A stretch of 56,678 nt of DNA, taken from the IMG/VR virus record IMGVR_UViG_3300005830_000062, positions 1 through 56,678 of that record, one strand, 5' to 3'. This stretch comes from a virus. Each line of letters starts with the position of its first letter. Position 1 is the stretch's first letter. The position numbers and the translations under genes were made by a program. Shown in pieces: positions 15,811 through 39,679 of the stretch. Below the pieces are notes generated by a model. The model was not told the DNA's origin. It made no database searches and saw nothing but the letters and a program-made list of their open reading frames with translations.

Positions 15811-15811
15811 T

Positions 15812-15887
15812 AGGGGAGTAGCTCAGTGGTTAGAGCACCTGTCTTATACACAGTTGGTCCTGGGTTCGAATCCCAGCTCCCCTACCA
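15812..15887 (+). tRNA. tRNA-Ile (anticodon UAU), CCA encoded.
   Basis: Acceptor AGGGGAG/CTCCCCT. D arm GCTC-AGTGGTTA-GAGC. Anticodon loop CTTATAC. T arm CTGGG-TTCGAAT-CCCAG. Confidence 0.85.
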
Positions 15888-17940: not shown

Positions 17941-18045
17941 CGTTTATATCTAATCTCATCTGAGCCCAGTTAGGATTGGAGCCCCAACTACCGTGTAATC
18001 CGGAGTCAATAGCTCGTCTTTGAAAACCTTTGGGGGTTTTTTCTT

Positions 18046-18957: not shown

Positions 18958-19220
18958 TTCATTCCTAATGAAAGAATCTCAACCTGACCTCTATAAACAA
19001 ATACACTAACTGGAGTACCTACTGGAATAATCTGCCCAGTTCCAAAATCACCAGATGCGACTTTGGCTTTAACTCCAGCAGATGTAGAAGTTCTAGCAAA
19101 GGTTACTAATACATATTGACCGATTCCATCATAGTCCTCACCAAGATAGGCTCGGTGAATACGGTGCTGATTTGTTTGAGTACTGAGTTCAGTTAATCGC
19201 CTTGATGGTTGTATCTTCAT
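18954..19220 (-). CDS. Small tail-associated protein, paralog of the N-terminal domain of 18046..18957.
   Basis: Shared string HRAYL.E.YDGIGQYVLVT.ARTSTSA..KAKVA.GDFG...GTPV...RGQVEIL.LG. Confidence 0.5.
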   Translation of the reverse strand: MKIQPSRRLTELSTQTNQHRIHRAYLGEDYDGIGQYVLVTFARTSTSAGVKAKVASGDFGTGQIIPVGTPVSVFVYRGQVEILSLGMK

Positions 19221-21781
19221 GGGATTAGGCTATTATCAAGAGTAAGAAGTTGACGAGGTTCTTTGGATTGATTAATCCGAATAGACATTCCTTCAATTCT
19301 TACAATTGTAGTATTACCCAGATTATCAACCCACTCAATAGCATCCATCCTATTCAAATCGAAGAATAGGATAACTGTTCCACCAGGGGCAACTCCAATT
19401 TGACCTCGTCTGATTTCTTCTCTAGTTCTATCTTTTACAGAATCCCAATCTAGAAGTTCAGGCAAATCATAATAACCCACAATCTGCCTATCTCGAGATT
19501 GAGTATCTACTTCATCTACTTCTATCCAGGTATGTTCATTTCCATCAACTACAGCTAGATTAATTCTACGATTAGCCTCATCAGTATGTTCCGTAGAAAT
19601 GATACGATCCTGAATTTTCTTAACTGGAGTCTTGTCAGTGAAACGTCCGATCTGGATAAAACCATTTTTCCAAATCATTTGAAGTTTTTCAGTTTCTAGC
19701 GCCGTCTTTAAAGCTACTGCTGGACTGGGAATATCTGTCTGTGGACCCCAGATGATTGCATATGCTTTAGATTCTGCATTTCCAACTACTACATCATGAT
19801 AATCTCCCATTGATAAAGCAGTACGGATTAGATCCTCCATTGTCAGATTAGCTTCCCAATCAGTAAGTGTGAAATTAGAAATCTTGTAACTTGTCGCATT
19901 AAAACCTACATAACCAGGTTTGACATGTTCAGGATCTACTAGTTTACTATCTAATTTCAGATCATCATTATAGTAGATCTTATAAGCCCCATAAACTATA
20001 TCAACTTTAATTTTATGATTAGATGTTGACGTAATAGAAGTAGAGTCTAGGTTAGTAGAAACACCATTCTTTACCTGAGCAAGAAAGATAGTAGAACCAG
20101 ATATATAAACCTTCATATAATTGAGAGAGTTTACATATCTGAAGATCACAGTAGGAGTTCCTGTAACCCCAGACAAAGTAACTTCTATATTCGGATTATG
20201 ACCTTTCCAGCCAGTATACAAACAAATACCGCGAGATTGAAGACGATAATCTGTTGTCTCTAGAGGTGCAGAATCAGTTTCAAAGAAGTAGTTGAATGAT
20301 TTATTCCTTTTACCATCAGCCCAATCTTCCCAAAGAGTTTTACCTAGGAAATTGTAAGTATCTCTAAGTGAATTAGATAAACGATCCCAAACATCACCGA
20401 CTTGAACCCTTAGTCGACTAGATTCACCTTCTATCGAACGAGTAATTCTTCTAACCCACCAATCATTGAAATCAAAAAACTCAAACTGACCAGTTGTAGT
20501 TTTGATACCTACTTGAATTTTAGTACGTCTATCAGAAAGTGAAAGAATGTTATCGTTTACACCTAGTGGGTTTGAGACAGTATACTCACCATTACCTACT
20601 TGATTATCTGAAGGCATTTCCATGTTAACTTCTGGAACGAAGTTAGTTAAATCATACGTAACTGAAGATAATGGACGATACCAGACTTCACTATTACCAA
20701 CTAAGTAAACGTAAGATCCGGATTCGAAAACATACCAACCATGAAGACCTGAGATACCAGTATGAACTGGTTCTGACCAGTGATACAGGTCCTTAGATCG
20801 TTGCCATATAAGAGGGGAGTAGGTATCTGAGATAAGTTGATAATTTTCATCAACATGGTGTTCATTAGAGAATAGATACCAATACCCATCAGATAATAGA
20901 AACATCCTCGGGTAATTAAGTTCGTTATGACCCCAATCACTACCTACACCCCGAATTAGAGATAACGGTTCTGGTCGTGTAGTGGCACCATAGGTAGTAC
21001 TGGGAAGATAAGATATGACAATACTATCACCACGAGACTTTGCTCTGGGATCTGAAAACATTCCTATGCTTTGAAGTCGATAAAGTTTGGAGTTGATTAT
21101 ATAGCCCCAGATGGTAGTTCTATACCATTCATAGTTTAAGATATCGCTTGCTGGAGTGACCGAGTTGATATTCTCTGTGTAATATAAATCAAGAGTACGT
21201 CCGCCATGATTAGAAGTCTTCAATAAACGAAGATACATCATTCCGTTTGTGCCACCTTCTACTGGATAGATAGTGACACAATCTGCAGTTGGGTTCCAAA
21301 CTAAAGCATTATCTCGGTAAACACTTCCATCTGATTTAGAATGGTAAATGGTATAAGTACTAGCTCCTGTTGCAACTACTGCTACAGCTATATGATCACC
21401 AGAATAGAGTAATGACCAACTATTCCACTGAGCAGCTAAAGTAGGATCTGTAATAGTTTGAACATAGAGTTGGCGATCAGATTCTGATCCATCACCAACT
21501 CTTGCTCGAATGATATTACCATTTCCTAATAGTAAAGCTGAAGATTGTGCTCTATAAGATTGGGATAGAATACTAGTAACAGGCCCACCAGTAACGAAAT
21601 CTTTCTGTCTGATTTCAGTACCGGTTAGTTTTACCCATTGGTTTAGATTCTCATCGATAATAGAGATCTTTAATCCGGTTTCCCTGCTCCTTAATTCTTG
21701 GGCTGCTAATAGTTCAGCAGAAAAAGCCCCATAAGTACCAGCAGCCCCATATAAAACCGATGTTCCGTACTTTGTTGGCAT
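19217..21781 (-). CDS. Large distal tail / baseplate protein (854 aa).
   Basis: Size and position downstream of the tape measure and small tail proteins. Very AT-rich. Confidence 0.5.
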   Translation of the reverse strand: MPTKYGTSVLYGAAGTYGAFSAELLAAQELRSRETGLKISIIDENLNQWVKLTGTEIRQKDFVTGGPVTSILSQSYRAQSSALLLGNGNIIRARVGDGSESDRQLYVQTITDPTLAAQWNSWSLLYSGDHIAVAVVATGASTYTIYHSKSDGSVYRDNALVWNPTADCVTIYPVEGGTNGMMYLRLLKTSNHGGRTLDLYYTENINSVTPASDILNYEWYRTTIWGYIINSKLYRLQSIGMFSDPRAKSRGDSIVISYLPSTTYGATTRPEPLSLIRGVGSDWGHNELNYPRMFLLSDGYWYLFSNEHHVDENYQLISDTYSPLIWQRSKDLYHWSEPVHTGISGLHGWYVFESGSYVYLVGNSEVWYRPLSSVTYDLTNFVPEVNMEMPSDNQVGNGEYTVSNPLGVNDNILSLSDRRTKIQVGIKTTTGQFEFFDFNDWWVRRITRSIEGESSRLRVQVGDVWDRLSNSLRDTYNFLGKTLWEDWADGKRNKSFNYFFETDSAPLETTDYRLQSRGICLYTGWKGHNPNIEVTLSGVTGTPTVIFRYVNSLNYMKVYISGSTIFLAQVKNGVSTNLDSTSITSTSNHKIKVDIVYGAYKIYYNDDLKLDSKLVDPEHVKPGYVGFNATSYKISNFTLTDWEANLTMEDLIRTALSMGDYHDVVVGNAESKAYAIIWGPQTDIPSPAVALKTALETEKLQMIWKNGFIQIGRFTDKTPVKKIQDRIISTEHTDEANRRINLAVVDGNEHTWIEVDEVDTQSRDRQIVGYYDLPELLDWDSVKDRTREEIRRGQIGVAPGGTVILFFDLNRMDAIEWVDNLGNTTIVRIEGMSIRINQSKEPRQLLTLDNSLIP

Positions 21782-22464
21782 TATAATCGCTCGCGGAAAG
21801 TAAAGACAATAGAAAGATCTTGACCTGGATCATTAGAACCGACAGCATCTACATCAACGACAATCTGAACCCCAGACGGATAAGTAATATAGTTAGGACT
21901 AGCATGAGACCAAACTCTAATTCCGGCATTGAAGATAGGACGTAATCCGGGTGAAGCAGCATATAATGAAGTAGGTCCGAAGTTTATATCCAAAGCAGTA
22001 GTAGCACCAGATGGTGCACGACGTAATCTTGCATCAATACTTTGAATAGATAAACTTTTACCGAATGAGAAGGGAGAACCTAATGAAGCCCCATTTGGAA
22101 GAGATCCTTGATAGTACCACGGAATAACTTGTAGACCATGAACATCAGCATCCATTAAATGATCATATAAATTAGCCCCTCCCACAGGAAGGGCACCAGA
22201 GGGGAGAGTTATGGCAGTTGGATTGATTCTTGGGCCTTGTCCACTAGCTCCATCATGTTTATGCGCCCCTGTGGGATTTCCAAGCCGATAATCTAGTGTA
22301 GTTGCAACTGAGGAGCTATCTATCCCAATTTTCTTTTCGATTGCCTTGATAGCTTCCTTGATATTGTTATGATGATCATCTATAATCGCAGTTACGGTAT
22401 CGGTGACGTCGAAAAGTTCGGTATCTGTGTCCAATACGCTTGGGAAGTTAGTATTGCCAGCCAT
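21781..22464 (-). CDS. Tail fiber-like protein (227 aa).
   Basis: The N-terminus FPSVLDTDTELFDVTD...HHNNIKEAIKAIEKKIG resembles common phage fiber N-termini. Position is consistent. Confidence 0.4.
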   Translation of the reverse strand: MAGNTNFPSVLDTDTELFDVTDTVTAIIDDHHNNIKEAIKAIEKKIGIDSSSVATTLDYRLGNPTGAHKHDGASGQGPRINPTAITLPSGALPVGGANLYDHLMDADVHGLQVIPWYYQGSLPNGASLGSPFSFGKSLSIQSIDARLRRAPSGATTALDINFGPTSLYAASPGLRPIFNAGIRVWSHASPNYITYPSGVQIVVDVDAVGSNDPGQDLSIVFTFRERL

Positions 22465-27853: not shown

Positions 27854-28435
27854 CTAACTCTCTCTAATCAAATCTTGAGCAGTAATCTCTTGATAAGAGA
27901 ACTCATTCCAAGCAAGCTCAGTCAAACCTTCTGCTGGGATGGAAGCTCCAATGTCACCTTCCATCTCTATAAGGGCTTTGGCTGTGTTTCTGAGTTCTCT
28001 GGCGGTGACTGAGGTGTCGAGGGTAACAGCTCCGAGACCTCCACCGCCCGCCAACGACTGGCGTTGGGCGACTTTGGATGCATCTGCTGCAATAGCAAGT
28101 AGCACCTTCGCCGCCGCGATTGTTGTATTGCCGCCTGCCGCATCGACAAAGTATTGAATCTCGGCATCACTGAATATGCTCCAATAGTAGGTGAAGTCTA
28201 CTTGAGCACTAGCTGCCGGAGTGACAGTGAAGGTCACTATCCCCTGATCTGCATCTAACGTCCAGTCAGTGTTGATTGCCCCACTGACTCTTACTTCCAG
28301 AGTGGGACTGGTGGAGATATTCCTATGACCTAGTTTGAAATACTTCTGAAGTCCATCACCTTTAGCAGTCTCTCTGGTGATCAGACTCTTATCTGAAGTA
28401 AGTAATCTGACAGCATCAATATCTCCAAGGGTCAT
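27854..28435 (-). CDS. Head-tail adaptor candidate.
   Basis: Position only. Confidence 0.35.
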   Translation of the reverse strand: MTLGDIDAVRLLTSDKSLITRETAKGDGLQKYFKLGHRNISTSPTLEVRVSGAINTDWTLDADQGIVTFTVTPAASAQVDFTYYWSIFSDAEIQYFVDAAGGNTTIAAAKVLLAIAADASKVAQRQSLAGGGGLGAVTLDTSVTARELRNTAKALIEMEGDIGASIPAEGLTELAWNEFSYQEITAQDLIRES

Positions 28436-30147
28436 GAGCTTTGCCCTTCGTTACGCTTGGGACTTCCCCAACTCTCTTGAATAGATGGGAATCCGCCATC
28501 CCTTGTACTTCCGAAGGTTGGCGAAGCATTCAACCAGTACCAGTTACCCCCAACCGCAACAAGAGGCTCGAAGACAATCCCCTGCTGAGTAATCAAGCCC
28601 ACAAGGATGATGGAGGCCTGAACCATCTCCGGTTCAAAAACTTGTCCCAGGTTCTCAATAAGCGGCGGCTGTGGACCGGCAATCAGGACGGTAGGGGCGA
28701 AAATCTGAGGTACCTGGGTAATCAGAGTCAGGGCGACTTGGGTATTGACGGAGGGGGCGAATAGTTGAACGCCGCTGGGAATCAACCCCAACTGAACTTG
28801 CTGTGCAATTATAGGATCGAAGGTGGTTCCTAGCTGTTGAATAAGAGTTGGCTGTATTGATCTGAGAATATTCGGGTCGAAGGTGACGCCCAGTTGCTGG
28901 ATCAAGCCTAATCCAAGAGGAGCATTGAGACTTGGTGCGAACACCTGGCCCAATTGACTGATCAGCTGTGGAGCGATAGCCCCAGCAACAATACTAGGTG
29001 TGAAGACCTGACCAGACTGATCTATCAGAGGTATTTGAACTTGCTGGAGAATATCTGGGGCGAAGAGCTGACCTAATTGTGAGATTAGAGCAGCCTGAAC
29101 TTGTTGATTAACCTGAGGGCTGAAGACAGTCCCCAACTGACTGATCAGCCCAAGTTGAACCTGTTGAGCCACAGATGGGGCGAATGGGGATCCAAGCTGT
29201 TGGATAAGATCTGGGGTAACAAACTGAGCTTGAAGAATAGTAGGATCGAAGACTACTCCCAAGTTAGTGATCTGACCCAGGTCTATAACATTGCCTGTAG
29301 ATGGAGCGAAGACCACCCCGAGCTGAGAAATAAGATCTGGAGTTACAAACTGGGCGCCGATGACCGTGGGTGTGAAAGTTATACCAAGTTGACTAATCAG
29401 GCCCAACTGGACCTGCTGATTGATTTGCGGCGCAAATACCGAGCCCAGTTGTGAGATTAATCCGAGTTGAACCTGTTGATTGATTTGCGGACTGAAGACG
29501 GTGCCAAGTTGAGTTACCAACCCCAATTGAATCTGTTGGTTGATTTGGGGACTGAAAACCAGACCTAAGTTAGAGATTAGGTCTGGTTTAAGTTGGCCTT
29601 GTAGAACCGTCGGCTCCAGGGCAATCCCGAGTTGCTGGATAAGAGCTGGATCCACCGCCTGGGGAACTAAGACGGTAGGATCAAAGGTTACTCCCAACTG
29701 GCTGATTAACCCAGGATCAACTTGCTGATTGATTTGGGGTGCGAATAGTGAACCGAGATTAGAAATCAGATCCGGATAAATGATCTGTGCCTGCAGAAGA
29801 CTTGGTTCTAAAGCAGTACCAAGTTGAGAGATGAGGCTCGGTAGAACTTGCTGGTTAACTTGGGGAGCGAAAGTAGTCCCTAGCTGGCTGATAAGATTAG
29901 GATATATGATCTGTGCCTGAAGTAAACTAGGTGTTAAAACAGAACCTAAATTAGAAATCAGTCCGGGATCTACTCGCTGATTGATTTGTGGGGCGAAGAT
30001 AGAGGGAGTCTGTGTGATTAGTCCAACATCAACTTGTTGATTGATTTGGGGAGCAAAAACTACACCAAGATTAGAAATGAGTCCCATCGGCCCCACAGTT
30101 TGTGGGCCTGGTGCTCCCCCACTCTGAAGTAGAGTTAGAAGAGTCAC
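28432..30147 (-). CDS. Tandem-repeat protein (571 aa) built of 25 units of 20-22 aa.
   Basis: Consensus unit LISQLGxVFAPQINQQVxLG, read 25 times in the track translation. The C-terminal ~45 aa are non-repetitive. Confidence 0.8.
   Translation of the reverse strand: MTLLTLLQSGGAPGPQTVGPMGLISNLGVVFAPQINQQVDVGLITQTPSIFAPQINQRVDPGLISNLGSVLTPSLLQAQIIYPNLISQLGTTFAPQVNQQVLPSLISQLGTALEPSLLQAQIIYPDLISNLGSLFAPQINQQVDPGLISQLGVTFDPTVLVPQAVDPALIQQLGIALEPTVLQGQLKPDLISNLGLVFSPQINQQIQLGLVTQLGTVFSPQINQQVQLGLISQLGSVFAPQINQQVQLGLISQLGITFTPTVIGAQFVTPDLISQLGVVFAPSTGNVIDLGQITNLGVVFDPTILQAQFVTPDLIQQLGSPFAPSVAQQVQLGLISQLGTVFSPQVNQQVQAALISQLGQLFAPDILQQVQIPLIDQSGQVFTPSIVAGAIAPQLISQLGQVFAPSLNAPLGLGLIQQLGVTFDPNILRSIQPTLIQQLGTTFDPIIAQQVQLGLIPSGVQLFAPSVNTQVALTLITQVPQIFAPTVLIAGPQPPLIENLGQVFEPEMVQASIILVGLITQQGIVFEPLVAVGGNWYWLNASPTFGSTRDGGFPSIQESWGSPKRNEGQSS
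28570..30087 (-). repeat. Diverged in-frame tandem repeat of 60-66 nt, about 25 copies.
   Basis: Recurrent ttgatttg(g/c)gg...gaa(g/a)ac blocks on the plus strand. The protein shows the matching periodicity. Confidence 0.8.
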
Positions 30148-30842
30148 AACTTAGATCCAATCATTAGTCGAGCAAGAGGATTGCCGCCAGCTGAAAGATC
30201 GGCTAGATTTATATCATCAACCTTAAAGTTCTTGGAAGATGAACTATCTACGTTCTGTAGAGTAAGTTGGAGTATACCAGCATTCTGAGCGTTGCCGCCC
30301 GGCGCAGTATCAGTATATTCTCGACTCCATGTTCCTGGTTCTGCATCTCCGTCTTTCCACAATCGGTAGCGACAAATAACATCAGAACCACTGTTTTCTA
30401 ATTGCCATCTAATACGAACATGGTCGCTGGTAGTAATACCTGTGAGAATACCGGTGATTGTATCAAGTGTTGTGGGTGTTCCGCCTAGATTTCGGCGGAG
30501 TGAAAGCCCGATACTCCCTGTGCTTCCAAATTGAATCTGGAACCGGTAGTAATCATTTCCAGCATTCTGATATCGAGTTTCGATGCGACAATAGGCGATA
30601 TTGCCTGCTTCAGTGAAATCATCGACTAAAACTCTCAATACGCCTTCTTGATCAGCTACCGCCGTCATAGAATCAAGTCTGGCGGCTCTGTTTGTACTAG
30701 CTGCTGTACTACAAATACCTTCAGACCCATCTACAGAGAACTCAGCAGTTCCATTAACTGTCCAAGCTCCGCCAGTGTCGGCCGTACCCCACTGATTGGT
30801 ACCCAGTGTTCTGGTAAAGGTATCTGTAGCGTAGTTCGTCAT
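30144..30842 (-). CDS. Hypothetical virion-associated protein, possibly a lectin/jelly-roll fold (232 aa).
   Basis: Beta-rich Thr/Gly/Ser sequence. Position in the accessory block. Fold is a guess. Confidence 0.35.
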   Translation of the reverse strand: MTNYATDTFTRTLGTNQWGTADTGGAWTVNGTAEFSVDGSEGICSTAASTNRAARLDSMTAVADQEGVLRVLVDDFTEAGNIAYCRIETRYQNAGNDYYRFQIQFGSTGSIGLSLRRNLGGTPTTLDTITGILTGITTSDHVRIRWQLENSGSDVICRYRLWKDGDAEPGTWSREYTDTAPGGNAQNAGILQLTLQNVDSSSSKNFKVDDINLADLSAGGNPLARLMIGSKL

Positions 30843-31543
30843 GTCGGGTAATAACCTCCCCCGACGAATGGAAAGCCTTCTGCGGGAGTAGGAGCAGAAG
30901 CTTCCCTGACTGCGATGACAGCCCAGGCGCCGTCATCTGAACTCTGCGTCCACGCGAACGTGGTCAGGGCCGCCCCGGTGCCGGTGTATAGGGCCGTCCG
31001 CCGGTTGATGACCGAGACGAAGTTGCCGAAGTCCTGGGAGTGCGACCGGGTGAGGCTGGCGTTGTCGGTGATGGACGACAGCGCGTTCTCGCCGGAGTAC
31101 AGGCCGCCGTAGAGCGCGACTACCGAGCCGCTCGGGATCGTCAGAGATGTCGTGATATTACTGATCGAGGTGCTACTGCCCTCGTCATATCCAATGTTAA
31201 TTCCGCCCGGCACCACCTCAGAGTAACCTGTCGCGCTCGTTCCATCGAACGCGGTCGCGATGTAAGCAGTCGAGCCGCTACGGGTAATTTCAACCGTTTG
31301 CGCTCCGGTTCCTGGAGCATCTATCCACCAGACCGACGTCGTGCCGGACTCGCCGCTCGTGTTGGCGCCGGTGGCGATCCGCGCCATCGAGACCCCGCCC
31401 CATGTGACGTCGGAGGTTTCCTCAACCGCTCCACCTGAAATGACGACGACGCCGTACGCCTTGTTGGCAGTGGTGGGCGACGACCAGTTGCGGGTCCCGG
31501 TTCCCGACGCGAGGTTTGTGGAGCTTCCGAGGGCGATAGTCAT
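30839..31543 (-). CDS. Hypothetical Gly/Ser/Thr-rich protein (234 aa) encoded in a high-GC island.
   Basis: Track ORF. Local GC is clearly higher than the flanks. Confidence 0.45.
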   Translation of the reverse strand: MTIALGSSTNLASGTGTRNWSSPTTANKAYGVVVISGGAVEETSDVTWGGVSMARIATGANTSGESGTTSVWWIDAPGTGAQTVEITRSGSTAYIATAFDGTSATGYSEVVPGGINIGYDEGSSTSISNITTSLTIPSGSVVALYGGLYSGENALSSITDNASLTRSHSQDFGNFVSVINRRTALYTGTGAALTTFAWTQSSDDGAWAVIAVREASAPTPAEGFPFVGGGYYPT

Positions 31544-31546
31544 CGC

Positions 31547-32863
31547 TTAGGACACCAGGTAGTACCAAACGGTGACGGTTAACGGGTTGATTGCCGCTGA
31601 GGTGGTGATCCGAAGATCAGCATCAGCTGCTCCAATGAAAGGCCCCGTCATTACAACACCGGGTTTATTGGTGCTACTTGGCGCAAACTCACCATCGAAG
31701 ATGGCCGGGGTAGTACCCCGTGAATAAGCACCAGTTCCTAAGTAGAGCTGCACCGCCCCTGCTGTGGTACCGCCGGCCTGAATCTGAACACCGGTTACAA
31801 CGATCTGTTGAGAAGCGGAGGCTGTCACCATCAAAGCGCTTGTTAGAGTTGATGTAAACTGAGCAGTGAATGAAGCTAGCTGCCAAGGAGAGCTATTCAA
31901 TCCAACATGTGGAGCATTAGCTACAACTAAAGCTCCACGTCGGTTCGCCCAGAGACCGACCATATCACCATCAGCTGACATAGCCGTCGGTTGCGCAGTG
32001 CTAGCTCTGGCTCCACTAAAGAGAGGATTACCGGCAGCGGGAACATCTACGGCAACTGGACCTACTACCTGAGCATTGAACAATGATGCGGTTGCCTGAT
32101 CAACTGTCAGAGAGCCAGCATTATCCGTTACCGGCCATGGACCTGTTCCTGCGTTGGCCGTGACCGTACCACTGACCGGCTGAGTCGCCTGCCAGAACGT
32201 ACCAGTGACCGGAACTCCACTCTGGTTAGAAGCAATCGCGACCGGCATCGAGGCAGCCATAGTAGCCTGCCCGAGGGCTGTTGGGATGCCGGGAGAATCT
32301 ACTGTCAATGAATCAGCATTATCTGTAACTGGCCACGGGCCGGTTCCGGCGTCTGCGACTATGTTTCCATCATGTTTAGTCCAAAGAGCGCCTCGGTTGT
32401 TAACTCGCAAACCGATCGCATCATCTTCAACTGGGGTTAGGGTAGCAAGTGCATCATCTCGTCGAGCTACAACTAGAGTACCGGTACCAGTAGTACCTAG
32501 AGCTGAATCCTCTGCGTACTGAGTACCGGTCGAAACGGCAGCCCCAGCCGTATCTCTAATGATAACGTTCAGGGCACCGTTCAGGGAAGCCCACAGGCCG
32601 ACAGCATCCCCATCAGCTGAAACGGCGGTGGGGAGGGCGGTAGAACCCCTGGCTCCAACATAGAGAGGATTCCCGGCCACAGCCGCGTCTGCAGCAGCTG
32701 GCCCCTGTGCCCAGAGTCCGCCAGTAGAATCGCCGTTAAGATCTACAGCTGTTCCGTCGGCGCCTAATGAAACCTTTACTCGTTGATACAGGACGCCGGG
32801 GCCTACATCGTCCGCCGCGATGGTGGCCCCAGATCCTGGAGTATATCCAACGTCATCAGCCAC
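31547..32863 (-). CDS. Fiber-like Gly/Ala/Thr-rich protein with an internal duplication (438 aa).
   Basis: AGNPL(Y/F).GAR.ST..PTA.SADGD.VGLWA...GAL.V occurs twice. (D/N)AGTGPWPVTDNA.SLTVD occurs twice. Confidence 0.5.
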   Translation of the reverse strand: MADDVGYTPGSGATIAADDVGPGVLYQRVKVSLGADGTAVDLNGDSTGGLWAQGPAAADAAVAGNPLYVGARGSTALPTAVSADGDAVGLWASLNGALNVIIRDTAGAAVSTGTQYAEDSALGTTGTGTLVVARRDDALATLTPVEDDAIGLRVNNRGALWTKHDGNIVADAGTGPWPVTDNADSLTVDSPGIPTALGQATMAASMPVAIASNQSGVPVTGTFWQATQPVSGTVTANAGTGPWPVTDNAGSLTVDQATASLFNAQVVGPVAVDVPAAGNPLFSGARASTAQPTAMSADGDMVGLWANRRGALVVANAPHVGLNSSPWQLASFTAQFTSTLTSALMVTASASQQIVVTGVQIQAGGTTAGAVQLYLGTGAYSRGTTPAIFDGEFAPSSTNKPGVVMTGPFIGAADADLRITTSAAINPLTVTVWYYLVS

Positions 32864-33692: not shown

Positions 33693-34008
33693 TTCTGATC
33701 TCCTTGCCGGTCTGTCCTACAATATGGATGGATCCGGTTGTGAAACCCATTCTAAGAATTTGAGGGGGCGGTTTCTTAACTTCGTTACTCAATGAGAATG
33801 GTTGACCGGGGATTTTCTGAAGGAAATCCCATATCTCTGGAGAGACGATTGCAGCCCCCTCCCCATCTAAATTGATGTGATAAGTTTTATGTGTGTGAGT
33901 TCTGTGGCACTGGCCACATTCATAAGGTGTTCTATAGGGTCGATCCCCGGCGACTAGAGTGAATACACAGGTTGTTTCTACTGGGTGTGTTATCCTAATC
34001 CCGGGCAT
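33685..34008 (-). CDS. Hypothetical protein (107 aa) with a CGQCHRTHTH motif.
   Basis: Track ORF overlapping both neighbours by a few nt. Confidence 0.45.
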   Translation of the reverse strand: MPGIRITHPVETTCVFTLVAGDRPYRTPYECGQCHRTHTHKTYHINLDGEGAAIVSPEIWDFLQKIPGQPFSLSNEVKKPPPQILRMGFTTGSIHIVGQTGKEIRSG

Positions 34009-36970
34009 CAGATTTACCTAAGAAAAGCCGACTCCAAGTACTGGCAACCCCAATCCAACTTATGGCTGGGGTATTCAGTTTCACCTTTTTGTGGAGATGG
34101 GCTCTTTCCTTCAGTGGAGTACTTAGTATCTGTATCACAGCTTTCGCATATAGCTCCTGAACTTCCGGGTTCCTAACATCTTCTGAAAGAATGATCCCAG
34201 AACTAACTGTCTCTTTCAAGGCTGCTAAATGATTAGTTACTGGAATGGCCCCGCCCAATTGAGCTTCTATGGCTGTGATGCAGTAAGTCTCAGTGAAGTA
34301 AGTCGGATAAAGCCAAACCGAAGATTTCTGAAATGCTTCAGCTAGTTCCTTTTGGTTAACTCTACCATGTTGAACTACCCCGGCGGTGTTGGCTTGTGCT
34401 TCTAATACTCGTTTCTTGAAATCGGCCAGATGGGGATACATAGGCGTAAACTTGTCTATGTTATTCCATCCATAGTAAAGATGCAATTCAGCTTCGGGAA
34501 TTGCTTCTATTACCTTCGGCCAGATTGATTCTAAGATAATATCTAATCCCCTATCCTGGGACGAGGAATAGATAACCCGCAGCGGATCCCTTTTCACCGC
34601 CTTATCGAACCGGCTGAAATCTATCCCATTGGGAATGATTACCAGCTTATTTGGATCCAAGAAAGGGTAGAACTTGAGCATGTAATTACGGTGCCACTCA
34701 CTGAGAACGACGATGTGATCAAACCGGTCCGCACGTTCTTTGGTGAGACGATCACCGCAGTCGGTATCGTGCATCCACAGGATGAATCGCTTCGTGTGGA
34801 TATCCCAGTCAGCAATTTCTGGCATTCTCCAGGCGATATACAGATCCGACCTCTCTTCCGGGTCGTATCTTGAGGTATCACGGTAAGCGACTCCGTTGTA
34901 GTATCCCGGGGCATCGATGTTAGAATAAACGACCGGAAGATGGCCTTGCTCAGCAAATCCTTCAGCAAGTTTTATGATGGCAGTCTCAGAGCCACCTAAC
35001 CCGCCCGTTTCGAAGACCTTGGGATTCCAGGTCTCGGGGCTTCCCATCGCTCCTATGACTATCTTCTTATCGTATGTAGCCTGAGGCTTATAGTCACAGA
35101 ACAGCCACCCAGTTCCTTGGAAATGAGGAACTTTGTATAGACTCCAGATCCGTCCTCTTGGGGCGATTAGGGCTTCAAGGTCTCTCTCATCGAAGATCCT
35201 TACATGTCCCTTCGGCTCTAATCTATCCCACTCAGGAATTCTACCTCTTTCCCAGGATAGATAAGGAGTCGTAATCGCTATATGTTTAGCGGTCTTTTCT
35301 ACATCCGCGAGAACAAGCGCCGGGTCTACAACGTGTTCTATTACTTCGAAGAAGAGAGCCAGATCCGCTCTTTCTTCTTCCCAGGCTCCGATTTCATCAA
35401 CATTAGAGACCTCGAAACGAGCTTCCACTCCCCATTCTTTCGCTCGTAACGTAGCCAGCTCAATACATCTCGGGTCGAGGTCGTACCCTTTGACCGGGAC
35501 GCCGGTTTCTTTGGCAAGTGGGAGGGTGATGAAGCCATCAGAGCAACCCCAATCTATAATAGATTTGGCTCCGATTCTTTTGGCTACTTCTATGGCAAAT
35601 TTCAAACGAGGAAAGTTAACCCAAGCTGGATCATTAATGGCTTCTTCTGCCATCGGAGTCCAATGTGGATTTCCGGTGTAGAAATCTGCCATCGCCTTTG
35701 GATCAAAGAGATGGGAAGTCTGGAAGAGAGTTCGTTCTCTAGTCTCCTTGATCTTTGGATGATCTTCTATATGCTTAGGTAAAGCATCATAGAGTTTCCG
35801 GGCCTTCACCCATTCGTCATTTCTACCGAGTTGCTCCCTTACTAGAAGGAAAGCATCTACCACTCGTTGGAGATAGATTTCGTTTCTCAGTAGATTGATT
35901 TGTTCACCAATGGTGTCATCTGGGCGAATTTCGTATGCCTTAGAATAGTTTGCAAGAGACATCTCGTAATCACCGAGATGGGCATACGCGCCCGCGAGAA
36001 CAACTAACGGAAAGAGTGTGTAATCCAGAGGATTGACGATCAGCATGGTGTCTGGAGCTGGCTTAGTAGCTCCAGCTTTTGTCATCTCAATTACAGCTCG
36101 ATAGTTTCCCATCGCGCTGTAAGTCTCCGCAAGTCCATACCAAGCATCTGGCCATTCCGGACAGATCTGAATCGCCAAATTGTCTGTATCTATAGCCTTA
36201 GAGAATTCCCCAGAAACCCGATACATGTCAGCGATTCTGTGCATCATCTGGTAGCGTTCTTCTCGCCATCCAGAGAGCTTCACAAATCTCTGACCGTGAA
36301 GAATGGCCTCTTTGAGATTACCCCGCCCGGCATTCTCCGTACAGAGATAACCCAGAATCCTTGGATCGGGATTTGGTTCTTGTTCCGCTAGTTGATCATA
36401 GAGGATATTGAGATTGCGATCTATCTCATGCTTATCCGGCGGTTTATGATGACGAACGAAGATATTATCAACTAGTTTGGATTTAGCCGCATCAAAGTTT
36501 AGTGGAACCAGAGTTTCGTGAACTTTACCTACCCATCTCCAGCCCTTGAACTCCAATTCGTCCTGAAGACGAACAACCCGTTCTCGAACGAGATAGCAGA
36601 TACAATTATCATTCTCATCACGGGCATAATCATAGCCCATGTAGAAACTATCGAGATTAGGATGAGAACGGAGTAGTTGGCGGATATTCTCACCGCCAAC
36701 CAACTCATCGTCTCCATCTAACCACAGGAAATAGTCTCCTGTGGCTCGATCTAGAACTAGATTTCTGGCCTCTGAGAAATCGTTAGTCCACTCGATCGGA
36801 AAGATCTTGTCAGTGAATTCTCGAGCGATTTGCTCGGTGTCGTCGGTGGACTCCCCTCCAAGACCGATTACGATCTCATCTACAAAGGGAGCCACCGACT
36901 CTAAACACCGACGAAGTGTCCTACCCTCGTTACGAACAATCATACCGAGGGTGATGGAGAAGTTATCCAC
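33995..36970 (-). CDS. Four-domain enzyme: GT2 glycosyltransferase, TPR, class I SAM methyltransferase, GT4-like glycosyltransferase (991 aa).
   Basis: GT2: SITLGMIVRNE...LWLDGDDE. TPR: AWYGLAETYSAMGNY, AYAHLGDYEMSLANYSKAYEIRPDD. MT: IIDWGCSDGF...LFFEVIEHV. GT-B: GGLGGSETAIIKLAEGFAEQGH. Confidence 0.75.
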   Translation of the reverse strand: MDNFSITLGMIVRNEGRTLRRCLESVAPFVDEIVIGLGGESTDDTEQIAREFTDKIFPIEWTNDFSEARNLVLDRATGDYFLWLDGDDELVGGENIRQLLRSHPNLDSFYMGYDYARDENDNCICYLVRERVVRLQDELEFKGWRWVGKVHETLVPLNFDAAKSKLVDNIFVRHHKPPDKHEIDRNLNILYDQLAEQEPNPDPRILGYLCTENAGRGNLKEAILHGQRFVKLSGWREERYQMMHRIADMYRVSGEFSKAIDTDNLAIQICPEWPDAWYGLAETYSAMGNYRAVIEMTKAGATKPAPDTMLIVNPLDYTLFPLVVLAGAYAHLGDYEMSLANYSKAYEIRPDDTIGEQINLLRNEIYLQRVVDAFLLVREQLGRNDEWVKARKLYDALPKHIEDHPKIKETRERTLFQTSHLFDPKAMADFYTGNPHWTPMAEEAINDPAWVNFPRLKFAIEVAKRIGAKSIIDWGCSDGFITLPLAKETGVPVKGYDLDPRCIELATLRAKEWGVEARFEVSNVDEIGAWEEERADLALFFEVIEHVVDPALVLADVEKTAKHIAITTPYLSWERGRIPEWDRLEPKGHVRIFDERDLEALIAPRGRIWSLYKVPHFQGTGWLFCDYKPQATYDKKIVIGAMGSPETWNPKVFETGGLGGSETAIIKLAEGFAEQGHLPVVYSNIDAPGYYNGVAYRDTSRYDPEERSDLYIAWRMPEIADWDIHTKRFILWMHDTDCGDRLTKERADRFDHIVVLSEWHRNYMLKFYPFLDPNKLVIIPNGIDFSRFDKAVKRDPLRVIYSSSQDRGLDIILESIWPKVIEAIPEAELHLYYGWNNIDKFTPMYPHLADFKKRVLEAQANTAGVVQHGRVNQKELAEAFQKSSVWLYPTYFTETYCITAIEAQLGGAIPVTNHLAALKETVSSGIILSEDVRNPEVQELYAKAVIQILSTPLKERAHLHKKVKLNTPAISWIGVASTWSRLFLGKSDARD

Positions 36971-37026: not shown

Positions 37027-38073
37027 TTACGTGACGATTGCACCGATGATCCCGCGCCACTCGATCGGCTTGAACTGGAAGTCGTGGCGGATCTTATACT
37101 TGACTTCATCGAAATCGAACGAATACGGGTCATTTCCACCGAGAACGGCCCGAACGCCCGGATCCTTCAGCCCAACGAACGGAGTGGTGTTTCCGTTGAG
37201 AGTGATGAAGGCCAGAGGCGAAAGGCTACCCGTCGGATCGGAAAGGACGTAGTAGTTGTTCGCGTCCGTGAAGAACGGTTCAATGACGATGTTACTGAAG
37301 TGACCCCTCATCAGGTTCGCTTCAAGCTGAGACGATGCGTTCGGCAGCAGCTCGTTCTCATTGATAGCACGAGCCACGAACCGAAGTTCCGTCGGAATCA
37401 GAAGAGTCCGGTTTCCAGGAGTGACGATGGTATAACCCTCATCATCCGTGAAATCGTCGAACTTCAGGTCCAATGTCTGAAGGTTAACCGCACCTTCTGC
37501 AGTCGCCGCCAAAGCTGTGGTAACGATATTGCCGTGGTTGGCGCTGATCAGGGCATTCCCGTCGAACATCGTCGGGTTGCTCTGAAGAGCGGTGATAGCA
37601 GCTCGCTTGCTCATCGTACGAGCAAGAGCCTCGGCGAGCAGTCGCGGCAGTTCAGAGATCTGGTTCAGCCGGTCAGAAATGATCAGCTGCCGGGTCACAC
37701 TGAATGCAGCGCCCCACTCCTTGAGGCGAACCTTCTCCGCCGGGAACTCGCGAATTGCGATCTCATCGTACGGAGCGTTGAGGCCACGCTCGGGAATATC
37801 CTCAAAGCGGCCGAAGCGGCTAGAGGTATATTCCTCGAAGTCCTCAAGATCTACCTGACGTGTATACTGGTTCCAAACGCCCTGGACTTCCTCGAATCGA
37901 GAAAGGAAGCTGTGTCGAACGAGCTTTCCGAGATATGTCGGAAAGTCGCTGGTCGACATCGCCTCCTGAGCGTCCAGCAAACCAGCATCGGCGGATTCCT
38001 TCGCTTCAACGTATGCGTCGAAGAGTCGGATGCGCTTACCAACTGGCAGTCCGAGCGGATTGACAGGCGGCAC
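37027..38073 (-). CDS. Major capsid protein candidate (348 aa).
   Basis: Size and position after the scaffold and decoration-like genes. No motif verified. Confidence 0.55.
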   Translation of the reverse strand: MPPVNPLGLPVGKRIRLFDAYVEAKESADAGLLDAQEAMSTSDFPTYLGKLVRHSFLSRFEEVQGVWNQYTRQVDLEDFEEYTSSRFGRFEDIPERGLNAPYDEIAIREFPAEKVRLKEWGAAFSVTRQLIISDRLNQISELPRLLAEALARTMSKRAAITALQSNPTMFDGNALISANHGNIVTTALAATAEGAVNLQTLDLKFDDFTDDEGYTIVTPGNRTLLIPTELRFVARAINENELLPNASSQLEANLMRGHFSNIVIEPFFTDANNYYVLSDPTGSLSPLAFITLNGNTTPFVGLKDPGVRAVLGGNDPYSFDFDEVKYKIRHDFQFKPIEWRGIIGAIVT

Positions 38074-38090: not shown

Positions 38091-38483
38091 CTAGTACTGA
38101 TTCTCAGGGCCGAAGAGAACAACACGAACCTGGGTAGCCCCAGCCACAGCTGTTGCCCAAGTACGACCGATCGCCACAGCAGAAGCCGCGAGGGAGGCCG
38201 TGTTATGGAACAGCTGAAGTGTCGTTGCCTGAGTGATCGGCACTGAATAGATCTTCTTGCCTGCGTAGATAAGCGAGGCGTCGAAGAGGTTACCCTTCAG
38301 ATCCCAGACCCCGTCGAGAATCTGAACAACCGGACGGTCAGCCGCAGTAGGAGCAGATGAGAAAGCGGCGTCATCCTGGACGACTCCGTAGTACCCATCC
38401 TTGTAAACCAAATCTCCGGCCATATGACCGAGAGTTGGTGTCCACTGGCGCCGGCGACCGGCATTGACGAAAGTGCGGGCCAT
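38091..38483 (-). CDS. Head decoration-like protein (130 aa).
   Basis: A small beta-rich protein between the scaffold and capsid genes, the usual place for DUF2190-type decoration proteins. Confidence 0.4.
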   Translation of the reverse strand: MARTFVNAGRRRQWTPTLGHMAGDLVYKDGYYGVVQDDAAFSSAPTAADRPVVQILDGVWDLKGNLFDASLIYAGKKIYSVPITQATTLQLFHNTASLAASAVAIGRTWATAVAGATQVRVVLFGPENQY

Positions 38484-38515: not shown

Positions 38516-39679
38516 CTACTTCTTGTCCTTGTCAGCTTCCTTCTTGATACCGAAGGTCGCTTCCACGGACTCCATCACGCTGACGGTGGAACGGCTCTCA
38601 CCGCCACTGCCTTCAGAAGCACCCATCCCAACGATCTTAGGACCGGCGCCGGCTTCCTTGAGTTCAGCCTTGGCGTCCTCAACGGACTCCTTCACGCTGT
38701 CCTCATCATACTCAAGAGCGTCTGCGAAGAGGTTGATGAGCCGAGCCTGAGTCCGAGCCGGAAGCCCTGACTTCGAGACATACTCTCGAACCCTCTTAGT
38801 CGTCGCATCCTTCTGAGATGCCTTCTTGGTCATCTCGTCCTGAATGCTCTGGACCTGCTCCTGAACCAGCTTCTCGATCTGCTCTGCAGTCAAAGAAACT
38901 CCTTCTGTGCTATCCTTCTTATCCTCGGTGCCCTCTCCATCGTCATCAGAATCTTCACTCTCCTTGGCGAGCTCAGTACGTAACTGAGCAATCACCTGGG
39001 GAGCGTTCTCCCGAATCTGATCGAGAGTGACCTCGTTCCACTCCACGTCTTCTGCTCCTTCGCTCTCCTTGGCAAATGAGATGACCTCACCACCAGCTGA
39101 TGGGTAGACTACCCAATCAACTGAATGAACGCCGACTATCTCCTGAACGTCCTCGATAGTCTGTAAACCTTCTTTTACATACCCAACCCGGATCCGATGA
39201 TTGGCAGAAACCCCCATATAAGGCTTCGCTCGCTGAGCGTAGTCGAAGAAATCCTTATTGAAGAATTCTACCTTACCAATGATCGCATCCCGCTTAGGAT
39301 CGTAGGTGGTCTCTTCCACAGCCGAGACCATCTCCTGAAGTGATCGCTTCAGGGGCGGCTGATTGCTGTGGTTAACGAACATACGAACCCCATTATAGAT
39401 CCCTTCCTTAGCGGCTTTCCGCAAAGTAGTAGATCGATAATTCCTGGGATTCTTGGCTCGTCCAGCTTTGATGATGACGACACTGGCACTCATCTTGCCA
39501 GTTTCTTCATCGGTATGGAAGGTGGCTTCCGAGGCGTCAACTACTTCAGAGGCAAGAATCGGTCCCATACCCTCCTCTTCTGTGGCTCGCATGATCGTAG
39601 CGCAATAAGCTTTAGGATCAGACTTGCCTGAGTTCTTTCTGACACAGTCAGCGAAGTTTTTGTACCCAGCGAATGGCAT
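38516..39679 (-). CDS. Scaffold / prohead maturation protein (387 aa).
   Basis: N-terminal YKNFADCVRKN...DPKAYCATI box seen in phage scaffold/protease fusions. Acidic coiled-coil C-terminal half. Confidence 0.45.
   Translation of the reverse strand: MPFAGYKNFADCVRKNSGKSDPKAYCATIMRATEEEGMGPILASEVVDASEATFHTDEETGKMSASVVIIKAGRAKNPRNYRSTTLRKAAKEGIYNGVRMFVNHSNQPPLKRSLQEMVSAVEETTYDPKRDAIIGKVEFFNKDFFDYAQRAKPYMGVSANHRIRVGYVKEGLQTIEDVQEIVGVHSVDWVVYPSAGGEVISFAKESEGAEDVEWNEVTLDQIRENAPQVIAQLRTELAKESEDSDDDGEGTEDKKDSTEGVSLTAEQIEKLVQEQVQSIQDEMTKKASQKDATTKRVREYVSKSGLPARTQARLINLFADALEYDEDSVKESVEDAKAELKEAGAGPKIVGMGASEGSGGESRSTVSVMESVEATFGIKKEADKDKK

Follow-up and report, generated by a model that had tools for sequence, protein, structure and literature searches.

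What might a phage do with a protein built almost entirely from one short motif, repeated in tandem 25 times and encoded among its structural genes? Such a protein is specified by the window, by which we mean the whole stretch of DNA analysed, all 56,678 nucleotides of IMG/VR virus record IMGVR_UViG_3300005830_000062; at 56.7 kb it looks like the near-complete genome of an uncultured tailed phage. The repeat gene is a real late (structural-module) gene of this phage, and we consider in turn its repeats, its relatives and neighbours, its predicted fold and the roles that it might have.

The repeat gene and its units

The gene overlaps both flanking structural genes by 4 nt and is divided as follows.

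28432..30147, minus strand: complete coding sequence of the 571-aa repeat protein, GTG start at 30147, stop codon included; homologues P0001-P0021
30082..30147, minus strand: N-terminal leader MTLLTLLQSGGAPGPQTVGPMG, 22 aa (aa 1-22)
28537..30081, minus strand: array of 25 tandem units (aa 23-537), delimited by unit mapping, periodicity and AF2 strands
28432..28536, minus strand: unique C-terminal tail (aa 538-571, ...WLNASPTFGSTRDGGFPSIQESWGSPKRNEGQSS) and stop codon, a possible anchor or cap

The earlier note on this DNA had given no strand for the gene; it is the minus strand. The reading frame is closed two codons upstream of the GTG. Two family members whose repeats begin after no more than a short stretch, P0110 ('MSLLLLLKGAAGGNVTVTPG') and P0117 ('MLLLLFASS'), have N-termini resembling the leader, which supports the GTG start, and the 'QTV.PG' linker in which the leader ends also precedes the first repeat in relatives. 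A scan for promoters and terminators around the gene found nothing convincing. In the metagenome scan the only matches were two short fragments of the same phage (L016 and L017), 100% identical to it.

The earlier note had described 25 tandem units of 20-22 residues behind a 22-aa leader, and unit mapping confirms this description. Sixteen units are of 20 aa, three of 21 and six of 22; units 1-13 begin at aa 23, 43, 63, 85, 105, 127, 147, 169, 190, 210, 230, 250 and 272, and units 14-25 at aa 292, 314, 334, 354, 374, 395, 415, 435, 455, 475, 496 and 518. Residue identity at a lag of 20 is 0.303, against 0.091 +/- 0.012 in 1000 shuffles (z = 17). The consensus is LISQLGxVFAPQINQQVQLG, in which P11 is conserved in all 25 units, L1 and I2 in 24 each, G6 and F9 in 22 each and L5 in 20. 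Hydrophobic residues recur every four positions (1, 5, 9, 13 and 17), and each 20-aa unit has eight conserved hydrophobic positions together with a conserved Asn at position 14. Ser and Thr make up 13% of the protein and charged residues 5%.

Some details of the earlier description need correction. Its statement that QINQQV follows in most units does not hold, the canonical form PQ[IV]NQ[QR][IV] being present in eight of the 25. The unique C-terminus spans 34-38 aa rather than ~45. This tail shows weak similarity to the C-terminal ends of P0001 and P0025 and is collinear in the global alignment; in BLASTP, aa 521-571 (the last repeat unit plus the tail) match P0001 at 2e-6 and P0025 at 2e-5.

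The DNA copies have diverged, as had been claimed. Mean identity between units is 51% for nucleotides and 52% for amino acids, identical residues share a codon in only 37% of cases, and TRF reports a 60-bp period with only 2.9 copies at 71% match. In the orthologue P0001, which is 46% identical, the array is collinear except for unit-scale gaps. The scrambled synonymous sites and this collinearity together argue that the array is old and selected, again in agreement with the earlier view, and as judged from the sequences it is under purifying selection.

Family and genomic context

The repeat protein has no credible match in Pfam, PHROGs or NCBIfam, including the named phage fibre repeats Phage_fiber_2 and Collar (in related contigs, Collar occurs in other genes only). 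A Pfam scan of the 571 aa at E <= 0.01 gave only a spurious sub-threshold match to TagA, the repeat region of 59 relatives had no Pfam match, a PDB sequence search with the repeat profile returned 0 matches at E <= 10, and the repeat motif strings occur in none of about 8 million papers. The repeat had not been recognised before as a member of any named family, and on this sequence evidence it is a previously unnamed one.

It is not a solitary protein. A hunt for the unit among metagenomic proteins had been proposed earlier, and the repeat profile, run against 1.84 billion representatives, finds 753 clusters at E <= 1e-3, 66 of them at E <= 1e-30; with proteins clustered at 50% identity, the family thus numbers 753 clusters or more. 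As defined here, the family comprises phage structural-module proteins with at least 3-4 tandem 20-aa units (variants 21-25) that match the A2 profile; its motif is LIxQxG-x2-F-x-P-Q-V-N-Q-x-V, and the window protein, with 25 units, belongs to it. Among 155 members the modal unit spacing is 20 aa (266 spacings), and the number of coils per protein across the family runs from 4 to 25. The C-terminal tails are heterogeneous (18 of 40 basic, 12 of 40 acidic) and no universal anchor motif was found among them; a universal basic C-terminal anchor was rejected because the tail charges are mixed.

Searches of other collections gave little. The repeat is absent from 50,697 GenBank phage records, where a single tblastn match, in Mycobacterium phage prophiGD102-1, falls antisense to gp38 and is dismissed as spurious; the more typical members P0008 and P0005 gave nothing against GenBank phages, or a LamG-domain match only. 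These searches revealed no cultured phage with the repeat. The degenerate DNA pattern F[AS]PQ[IVM]NQQV had no match in IMG/VR and two in 185,579 reference genomes, both in genomes assembled from metagenomes (Microcoleaceae and Oscillospiraceae). Neither locus has a repeat-protein-like ORF of >= 150 aa, and we therefore treat both as chance matches. A single-protein scan of IMG/VR found no relative.

The neighbouring genes place the repeat protein in a structural setting.

27854..28435, minus strand: 193-aa gene directly downstream, putative head-tail adaptor from its position
30144..30842, minus strand: 232-aa globular protein, probable lectin-like or adhesin module
30839..31543, minus strand: 234-aa globular protein, matching part of PHROG 553, 'minor tail protein'
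33995..36970, minus strand: 991-aa fusion of GT2, TPR, SAM-methyltransferase and GT4/GT1 (Pfam)
37027..38073, minus strand: major capsid protein (PF25209 Phage_capsid_4 3e-31; PHROGs 4523 and 133)
38091-38483: cement/decoration protein, PF09956-like

Upstream of the repeat gene are the terminase, portal, protease, decoration and capsid genes, with the capsid gene as the upstream boundary of its position, and downstream are Neck1-like, Ig-domain tail and tape-measure-sized genes. The 193-aa gene is the first of the connector-region genes; hhalign of its product against SU10-type adaptors was negative, so that its putative adaptor role derives from position. The L007 orthologue of the gene two positions beyond it matches PHROG 5, 'tail completion or Neck1' (3.5e-4). 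The 991-aa fusion gene belongs to the stretch that runs from the capsid gene to the repeat module; its product is a possible virion-glycosylation enzyme and may be tied to the repeat protein.

The 234-aa, 232-aa and repeat genes form a three-gene module, and all three are a single gene in the relative P0001 (972 aa), where the 234-type domain has the same order relative to the repeat. The stop of the 232-aa gene overlaps the start of the repeat gene by 4 nt (GTGA), and the 234-aa gene overlaps the next gene by 4 nt (ATGA). In our judgement the split is unlikely to stem from a frameshift or a sequencing artefact, given the ~29 extra junction residues, the clean GTGA overlap and the shared leader. 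The 234-type domain forms the N-terminus of repeat proteins in relatives, and the 232-type domain is fused to the repeat in 11 of 155 fetched family members and also occurs in PKD-domain proteins of Actinobacteria. The 232-aa protein matches the C-terminal region of phrog_24476 (2e-13), and found only itself in a word-indexed homologue search. PDB profile searches with the two domain types gave only weak matches (FimA at 0.026 and the tail-fibre protein 4qnl at 0.051).

Other relatives carry domains with a more evident connection to sugars. In them the repeat is joined to domains of the ConA-like lectin, CBM and pectate-lyase kinds: among 59 members, Pfam finds Laminin_G_3 in nine, and also Laminin_G_2, CBM96, a GH59 lectin domain, Beta_helix and Pect-lyase. 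Pectate-lyase or beta-helix genes adjoin the repeat gene in L001, L006 and L008. Sugar or glycosyltransferase genes lie within a few genes of it in 4 of 13 contexts, namely the window (the 991-aa GT2-TPR-MTase-GT4 fusion), L007 (GT1), L011 (two GT1 genes and an epimerase) and the P0003 contig (epimerase, DegT, acetyltransferase, MTase and GT4 genes).

A position between the capsid and connector genes, noted earlier for the window, holds more widely and is a stronger argument than could then be known. Of 13 contigs with relatives, nine (window, L007, L001, L002/L003, L012/L013, L005, L006, L018 and L014), with three capsid types, have the repeat gene in the capsid-to-adaptor/connector position. 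The exceptions are L008 and the P0003 contig, in which it is found upstream of the terminase gene and of the capsid module, respectively; L015 is uninformative, and L011 allows no judgement of position, as the contig breaks off right behind the repeat gene. It is from gene order that we infer presence in the virion and an attachment site on head, neck or tail; the role in head or neck suggested earlier is of this kind.

Predicted fold and possible roles

AF2 was run on the monomer, both at full length and on aa 186-398 (ten units). The ten-unit model has a mean pLDDT of 75 and a pTM of 0.59, with pLDDT 88-91 over three perfect units, and predicts one beta coil per unit, the strand pattern recurring in each (unit positions 17-19, 1-5, 8-9 and 12-13, that is, one strand of ~9 residues and two of 2 residues per coil), with a break at aa 295-305. 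The full-length model is poor (mean pLDDT 53.7), with the tail below 45 and the last units (aa 500-540) at 76-80. Helices of at least four residues are absent from both models.

Foldseek found no significant structural neighbour among solved structures or predicted viral ones. The highest-ranking neighbours, none of them significant, are without exception solenoids: MfpA, Qnr and AlbG (each coil 20 aa), ice-binding proteins, LpxD, GlmU and the HK620 and P22 tailspikes. The best match of the ten-unit model is MfpA (E = 0.22, TM 0.28-0.31, insignificant), and that of the full-length model is CsgA 8c50 (E = 0.35, TM 0.14-0.17, insignificant). The hydrophobic pattern and Asn14 would fit the filled core of a beta-solenoid with an Asn ladder. 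Each unit most likely forms one beta-solenoid coil, which bears out the earlier suggestion of a solenoid or fibre as far as the predicted coils and these insignificant neighbours go.

Our preferred reading, held tentatively and with somewhat less than even confidence, is that the protein is the solenoid stalk of an adhesin carried on the head or neck. In the predicted coil, L1, I2, L5, F9, I13, V17 and L19 would fill the core and G6, P11 and N14 would make the turns, leaving an almost uncharged, Gln/Ser/Thr-rich surface facing the solvent. If the solenoid model is right, the 25 coils would stack into a stiff rod of only ~12 nm, not a long fibre, closed by the distinct C-terminal cap and tail. 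Such a rod probably holds sugar-binding domains out from the virus particle. The repeat would then be a length-adjustable stalk or spacer for globular carbohydrate-binding or -cutting modules, which in the window phage may be the separate 234-aa and 232-aa proteins and in a relative are part of one polypeptide. From the capsid-to-adaptor position of the gene we would place the rod on the head or where head and neck meet, in the form of a head fibre, a decoration spike or a collar fibre; there it could mediate weak, multivalent and reversible adhesion of the virion to polysaccharide on or around the host. What the analysis shows is the repeat, its age, its lack of a named family, its setting among phage structural genes and its fusion partners; its fold is what is predicted, and its location in the virion, its stoichiometry and its adhesive function are what we infer.

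The repeat might instead be the shaft of a side fibre or spike attached to the tail or the adaptor, which with its lectin and depolymerase modules would be a host-range receptor-binding protein. We regard this as rather unlikely, although several observations point to it. T7 fibres dock on the adaptor, pectate-lyase neighbours are typical of tailspikes, and in five SU10-like contexts the repeat gene lies 0-2 genes upstream of the adaptor; adaptors of the SU10 type also dock fibres (PMC9509320). Given the match of the 234-type domain to PHROG 553 and the adjacent pectate-lyase and beta-helix genes, a tail location would fit equally well, and the L008 repeat gene lies outside the head module. 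In SU10 itself, however, the tail fibres are encoded after the adaptor, and the slot before it belongs to an Ig-like protein, gp10, for which a likeness to a minor capsid protein and to the N-terminal domain of the phi29 head fibre is predicted (PMC9509320); BLAST shows no similarity between SU10 gp10 or gp11 and the ORFs of the related loci. In the siphovirus contexts (window, L007 and L001) a complete tail and tip module also follows far downstream, and the window has a separate low-GC 854-aa gene that is itself a candidate tip or fibre gene.

An unlikely variant keeps the family and role and changes the architecture: the protein would form an intertwined homotrimeric fibre of 30-50 nm, a triple beta-helix or beta-spiral on the model of the shafts of adenovirus, reovirus and T4 gp12. 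Most phage fibres are trimers, and conserved Gly/Pro turns with alternating hydrophobics are typical of fibrous beta repeats. Because AF2 was run only on the monomer, a trimeric fold stays compatible with its models; the full-length one is of low confidence, and no solenoid match is significant. A monomer that reaches pLDDT ~90 on ideal units, with a compact coil for each, speaks for the solenoid instead, as do the fit of Asn14 and the eight hydrophobic positions to a filled core and the lack of any PDB fibre sequence match.

We consider it improbable that the rod is a glycoprotein scaffold, a substrate of phage glycosyltransferases that displays glycans rather than binding them, so that phage-made sugars on the particle serve adhesion, shielding or immune evasion. 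The four contexts with sugar genes and the Ser/Thr-rich, nearly uncharged composition would suit such a role, and the glycosyltransferase genes that mycobacteriophage genomes carry have been taken to suggest that capsids are glycosylated (PMC11256854). Most contexts, however, have no glycosyltransferase, no conserved glycosylation sequon is found across the family, and the enzymes could modify the capsid protein or host structures instead. Least probable of all, and by our estimate very unlikely, is a non-adhesive capsid cement or stabilising decoration, or a non-virion cell-surface or exclusion factor in the late operon: the gene does adjoin capsid and decoration genes, but a PF09956-like cement protein is already present, the 4-nt overlaps link the gene to structural neighbours on both sides, and the variation from 4 to 25 coils with inserted lectin, CBM and lyase domains argues for an outward-projecting structure that contacts a ligand.

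Electron microscopy reveals fibres on the head or neck of many phages, but the genes behind them, being diverse and unannotated, have seldom been pinned down. The 20-residue repeat profile provides a sequence signature for at least 753 clusters of a family that occupies one conserved place in the structural operon in most of the informative contexts examined, across three capsid types. If its members are virion adhesin stalks, the signature would help to annotate phage 'dark matter' and would describe a natural scaffold of tunable length (4-25 coils) with exchangeable glycan-binding heads; if they are ordinary tail-fibre shafts, its value is limited to better annotation. As a virion stalk the repeat protein may also be a substrate of phage-encoded glycosylation, which is known from few phages. 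Its structure, once determined, would probably bring to light a new kind of regular beta-solenoid geometry that could interest protein designers. It is possible, though we hold it doubtful, that the repeat represents a new beta-solenoid class, with a coil for every 20-residue unit and no significant structural neighbour, and serves as a modular display stalk anchored on capsid or neck. Unrelated sipho- and podoviruses would then have adopted it in the capsid-to-adaptor position, exchanging the lectin or depolymerase heads that it bears and in some lineages glycosylating the stalk with enzymes of their own, and it would amount to a widespread but unrecognised 'head adhesin' system in environmental phages.

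Comparison with known systems

Several known repeat proteins may be compared with the window protein. Pentapeptide-repeat proteins (MfpA, Qnr and AlbG), which form a quadrilateral beta-helix, have 20 residues per coil, the number predicted for the window protein; they imply a spacing of five, whereas that of the window protein is four, the predicted strand layout differs from the pentapeptide helix and the biology is unrelated. No pentapeptide Pfam model matches the window protein or any of 59 relatives. Curli CsgA and other Gln/Asn-rich functional-amyloid solenoids have Gln/Asn-rich units of 19-23 residues, each forming one coil. Unlike curli, the window protein has no signal peptide and is encoded in a phage structural operon; Curlin_rpt has no Pfam match in it, and its conserved F-x-P and L-I-x-Q-L-G motifs are not known to be part of the curlin repeat consensus.

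Tailspike and pectate-lyase beta-helices and the shafts of TpsA/FHA-type adhesins are, like the proposed stalk, solenoid rods bearing glycan-binding or -cutting sites, and HMW1, EtpA and the HK620 and P22 tailspikes are among the insignificant Foldseek neighbours. Right-handed beta-helix tailspikes and adhesins have irregular coils of ~22-25 aa and no repeat at the sequence level. PF13229 (Beta_helix) and PF12708 (Pect-lyase) match neither the window protein nor the repeat regions of 59 relatives, and such domains occur in relatives only as separate partner domains or neighbouring genes; in the window protein the repeat would be a spacer rather than a catalytic body. The shafts of adenovirus fibre, reovirus sigma1 and T4 gp12/gp5C are homotrimers of 8- or 15-16-residue repeats, a period that differs from the 20-22 aa of the window protein.

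Other likenesses are of placement and presumed function. The genes of phi29 gp8.5 and SU10 gp10 come right behind that of the major capsid protein and ahead of those for tail or adaptor, and this phi29-type placement is found for the repeat gene in the window and eight further contig groups. Gp8.5 may also be compared with the window protein as a dispensable-looking accessory of elongated repeat architecture with a presumed part in auxiliary attachment. The phi29 head fibre consists of an Ig-like base and a trimeric helix-turn-helix supercoil, whereas for the window protein the prediction is an all-beta chain that completes a coil every 20 aa; the lack of PDB sequence matches and of helix in the AF2 models, reported above, also means that no gp8.5-type similarity was detected. 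T4 Hoc, which is mounted on the head, non-essential and outward-projecting, and has been proposed as a glycan-binding adhesin, offers a functional analogy, although Hoc is Ig-like and the window protein, which has no Pfam Ig-domain match, is predicted to be a beta-solenoid stalk. If the analogy holds, the repeat protein would act much as phi29 head fibres or Hoc-type decorations do, and unlike a primary tail receptor-binding protein.

The repeat array and its family

The repeat gene is one long open reading frame (28432..30147, minus strand, GTG start, 571 aa); the frame is closed two codons 5′ of the GTG, and the opposite, plus-strand frame contains many stops. In its product, 25 units follow one another directly between a 22-aa leader and a unique 34-aa tail; they are 20 aa (16 units), 21 aa (three) or 22 aa (six) long. 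Unit parsing, together with a lag-20 residue identity of 0.303 vs 0.091 ± 0.012 in shuffled sequences (z = 17), confirms the description in an earlier, sequence-only note of 25 tandem units of 20–22 residues behind a 22-aa leader. Over these units, L1 and I2 are each conserved in 24, G6 and F9 in 22 and P11 in all 25. That note overstated the occurrence of QINQQV, which it placed in most units; the canonical half-unit PQ[IV]NQ[QR][IV] is present in only eight of the 25.

Mean identity between units is 51% for nucleotides and 52% for amino acids, only 37% of the residues common to two units use the same codon, and TRF analysis of the DNA reports a 60-bp period with only 2.9 copies. The low nucleotide identity, codon sharing and TRF copy number indicate that the array is old and is kept up at the protein level, as had been proposed from the divergence of the DNA copies. 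Two short metagenome contigs match the gene at 100%. Samples from which this phage derives include the JGI metagenomes Ga0210334 and Ga0210339, and the contig of one homologue belongs to an ENA assembly with ‘forest’ in its record name.

The repeat had not been recognized as a named family, and we found no credible match for the protein in Pfam, PHROGs or NCBIfam, while a profile of three consecutive units gave zero matches to PDB sequences even at E ≤ 10. The motif strings are absent from ∼8 million papers. Searching 5.8 billion proteins by word index brought up 21 relatives, all unnamed or ‘hypothetical’. A unit-profile HMM, run in full over 1.84 billion representative proteins, identified 753 clusters with an E-value of 1e-3 or better; 316 of these pass 1e-10 and 66 pass 1e-30. 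Members have from ∼4 to 25 units, and among the 155 members fetched the dominant spacing is exactly 20 (266 spacings), with minor variants of 21–25. The repeat was found in 0 of 50,697 GenBank phage records, and nothing real was found in IMG/VR or in 185,579 reference genomes. The sole tblastn match in GenBank phages (L004, MW584211.1, 16795–17349) is a compositional artefact, antisense to the annotated gp38 of Mycobacterium phage prophiGD102-1. The family is so far purely metagenomic; it is undescribed, fairly large and without a significant sequence or structural neighbour.

Gene position in the window and across contigs

The window has the appearance of a nearly complete phage genome. A plus-strand replication module contains a UDG–PolA fusion, a thymidylate-synthase-like gene, a PD-(D/E)XK nuclease, an SNF2 helicase and a primase-helicase. 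The late operon lies on the minus strand and reads, in order:

42934–44355 (−), large terminase, late operon
40853–42700 (−), portal
38516–39679 (−), protease or scaffold
38091–38483 (−), cement or decoration protein
37027–38073 (−), major capsid protein (PF25209)
33995–36970 (−), GT2–TPR–methyltransferase–GT4 fusion, 991 aa, directly after the capsid gene
(−), two small genes, between the 991-aa fusion and the 438-aa gene
31547–32863 (−), 438-aa protein
30839–31543 (−), 234-aa protein
30144–30842 (−), 232-aa protein
28432–30147 (−), repeat protein
(−), 193-, 179- and 196-aa proteins, next after the repeat gene
(−), 208-aa Ig-domain protein, after the 196-aa gene
(−), chaperone-sized genes and an 831-aa protein of tape-measure size, after the 208-aa gene

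Four consecutive genes, from the 234-aa gene through the 232-aa and repeat genes to the 193-aa gene, are chained by 4-nt overlaps, and the orthologue of the 196-aa protein on the syntenic contig L007 matches ‘tail completion/Neck1’. The 438-aa protein, which has no family match and whose gene directly precedes the 234/232/repeat module, has a clear internal twofold duplication (GNPL[YF].GAR.ST..PTA.SADGD.VGLWA and TGPWPVTDNA.SLTVD, each twice) and may be a further component of the same structure. Elsewhere in the genome, an 804-aa family-A DNA polymerase with an N-terminal uracil-DNA-glycosylase-superfamily domain and a 3′–5′ exonuclease domain is encoded at 10952–13366 (+), and the replication module ends with adjoining tRNA-Leu(TAA) and tRNA-Ile(TAT) genes (15727–15887, +). 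GC content falls to ∼0.38 at 18000–22000, compared with ∼0.50 in the remaining genome; this stretch takes in two ORFs at the tail module's distal end, of 854 aa (19217–21781) and 303 aa (18046–18957), neither with a match in Pfam or PHROG, and may be a host-specificity cassette subject to horizontal exchange.

We read the gene neighbourhoods of 13 contig groups. The placement between capsid and connector genes pointed out in the earlier note recurs in nine of the 13, and this capsid-to-adaptor position holds in most informative contexts and across three capsid types. The window and L007 are siphovirus-like; L001 has an HK97-type Phage_capsid and a Phage_tube_2 tail; in the five SU10-like podovirus groups (L002/L003, L012/L013, L005, L006 and L018) the repeat gene is 0–2 genes ahead of the SU10_adaptor gene; and in L014, read as P22-like from its Phage_stabilise gene, it lies upstream of that gene. 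In L008 the repeat gene is upstream of the terminase gene and next to a pectate-lyase gene, and in the contig encoding the homologue P0003 it precedes both a cluster of sugar-biosynthesis genes and the capsid module. L011 ends right past the repeat gene, and L015 is uninformative on position.

In phage SU10, the capsid protein is gp9, the adaptor gp11, and the fibres gp12 and gp13 follow the adaptor; the only gene in the capsid-to-adaptor position encodes gp10, an Ig-like protein likened to the Epsilon15 minor capsid protein and to the N-terminal domain of the phi29 head fibre (PMC9509320). The SU10 arrangement is the best available argument that this position would hold head accessories rather than tail fibres. 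A rival reading has the protein anchored to the adaptor or tail as a fibre and acting as a true receptor-binding protein. A match of the 234-type domain to the PHROG ‘minor tail protein’ and the pectate-lyase genes found as neighbours favour such a fibre, whereas the SU10 gene order speaks against it. We infer that mounting on the head or head–neck junction is most likely.

Predicted fold of the repeat

The proposal of a solenoid or fibre was explored by AlphaFold2, used on monomers only. The full-length protein (16-row alignment) gave a weak model (mean pLDDT 53.7), all-β with a repeating strand pattern, in which the last units (aa 500–540) reached pLDDT 76–80. Ten units (aa 186–398, 37-row in-register alignment) gave a mean pLDDT of 75 and a pTM of 0.59, with three perfect units at pLDDT 88–91. 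Every unit of this model has strands at positions 17–19 and 1–5, often fused across the unit boundary (9–10 residues), and further strands at 8–9 and 12–13, with turns at G6, P11 and N14–Q16. Each unit is thus modelled as one solenoid coil. The sequence fits a solenoid, as judged from eight conserved hydrophobic positions and a conserved Asn at position 14 per coil, and from a charged content of only 5%; Gln makes up 15%, Ser and Thr together 13%, and Cys and His are absent. β-Solenoids rise ∼4.8 Å per coil, and 25 coils would form a rod of ∼12 nm. A trimeric, intertwined fold is the rival to this monomeric one.

Foldseek searches of the models against PDB and BFVD yielded nothing significant. 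The top, insignificant matches are all β-solenoids. Among them are the pentapeptide-repeat proteins MfpA, Qnr and AlbG, whose coils, like the repeat unit, have 20 residues; others are LpxD, GlmU and ice-binding proteins, the tailspikes of HK620 and P22, and HMW1, EtpA and curli CsgA.

Domain partners and a proposed stalk-forming role

The commonest layout in the family is a globular N-terminal domain of ∼225 aa followed by 4–15 units and a short tail. The closest relative, P0001 (972 aa, 46% identical; L007, 2351–5269), joins in one chain homologues of the 234-aa and 232-aa proteins, in that order, with a single unit between them; 24 units with a related C-terminus follow. The window's 234-aa, 232-aa and repeat genes, which overlap by ATGA and GTGA, correspond in order to this single fused gene; the difference is a gene fission or fusion event, and the fused counterpart argues that the three proteins would act together.

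Iterated searches of the 155 fetched members found the 234-type domain in seven others and the 232-type in 11, the latter often in multiple copies strung between repeat blocks. Proteins of Microbacterium and Cellulomonas also carry the 232-type domain, there beside PKD domains. In 59 members scanned with Pfam, we identified Laminin_G_3 (ConA-like lectin) in nine, Laminin_G_2 in three, and CBM96, GH59 lectin, Beta_helix and pectate-lyase domains once each. These domains, and the PKD neighbours of the 232-type domain, suggest that the partners are carbohydrate-binding or -cutting extracellular modules, with the repeat as the connecting stalk. On unrelated contigs, genes for pectate lyases or right-handed β-helices, putative depolymerases, adjoin the repeat gene (L001, 6460–9990; L006, 2156–3223; L008, 8954–9997).

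The termini of P0110, P0117, P0003, P0005, P0009, P0017, P0018, P0007 and P0008 fall into recurring types. Members with a short pre-repeat stretch have short hydrophobic N-termini (MTLLTLLQSGG in the window, MSLLLLLKGAAGG, MLLLLFASS), another subgroup has MARFGRGFPPST, and several SU10-like members have strongly basic C-tails (RRRKRR). These may be docking peptides but are not universal.

Sugar genes lie close to the repeat gene in four of 13 contexts (the window, L007, L011 and the P0003 contig); that of the window joins GT2 glycosyltransferase, TPR, SAM methyltransferase and GT4/GT1 glycosyltransferase domains in one polypeptide. Together they hint at virion glycosylation, and mycobacteriophage glycosyltransferase genes have been taken to suggest capsid glycosylation (PMC11256854). 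The same genes would favour a rival in which the repeat is a glycan-displaying scaffold. A last alternative would make the protein purely a stabilising decoration.

We read the protein as a putative stalk-forming repeat of a modular virion adhesin. The stalk would hold out lectin-like modules, which in this phage are the 234-aa and 232-aa proteins with genes of their own, and these would provide weak multivalent binding to polysaccharide. Where the context is informative, the family mostly keeps to one conserved place in the operon, and it does so with three capsid types. A β-rich repeat rod in a phage structural protein is an already known kind of element; the repeat family that builds it here is undescribed.
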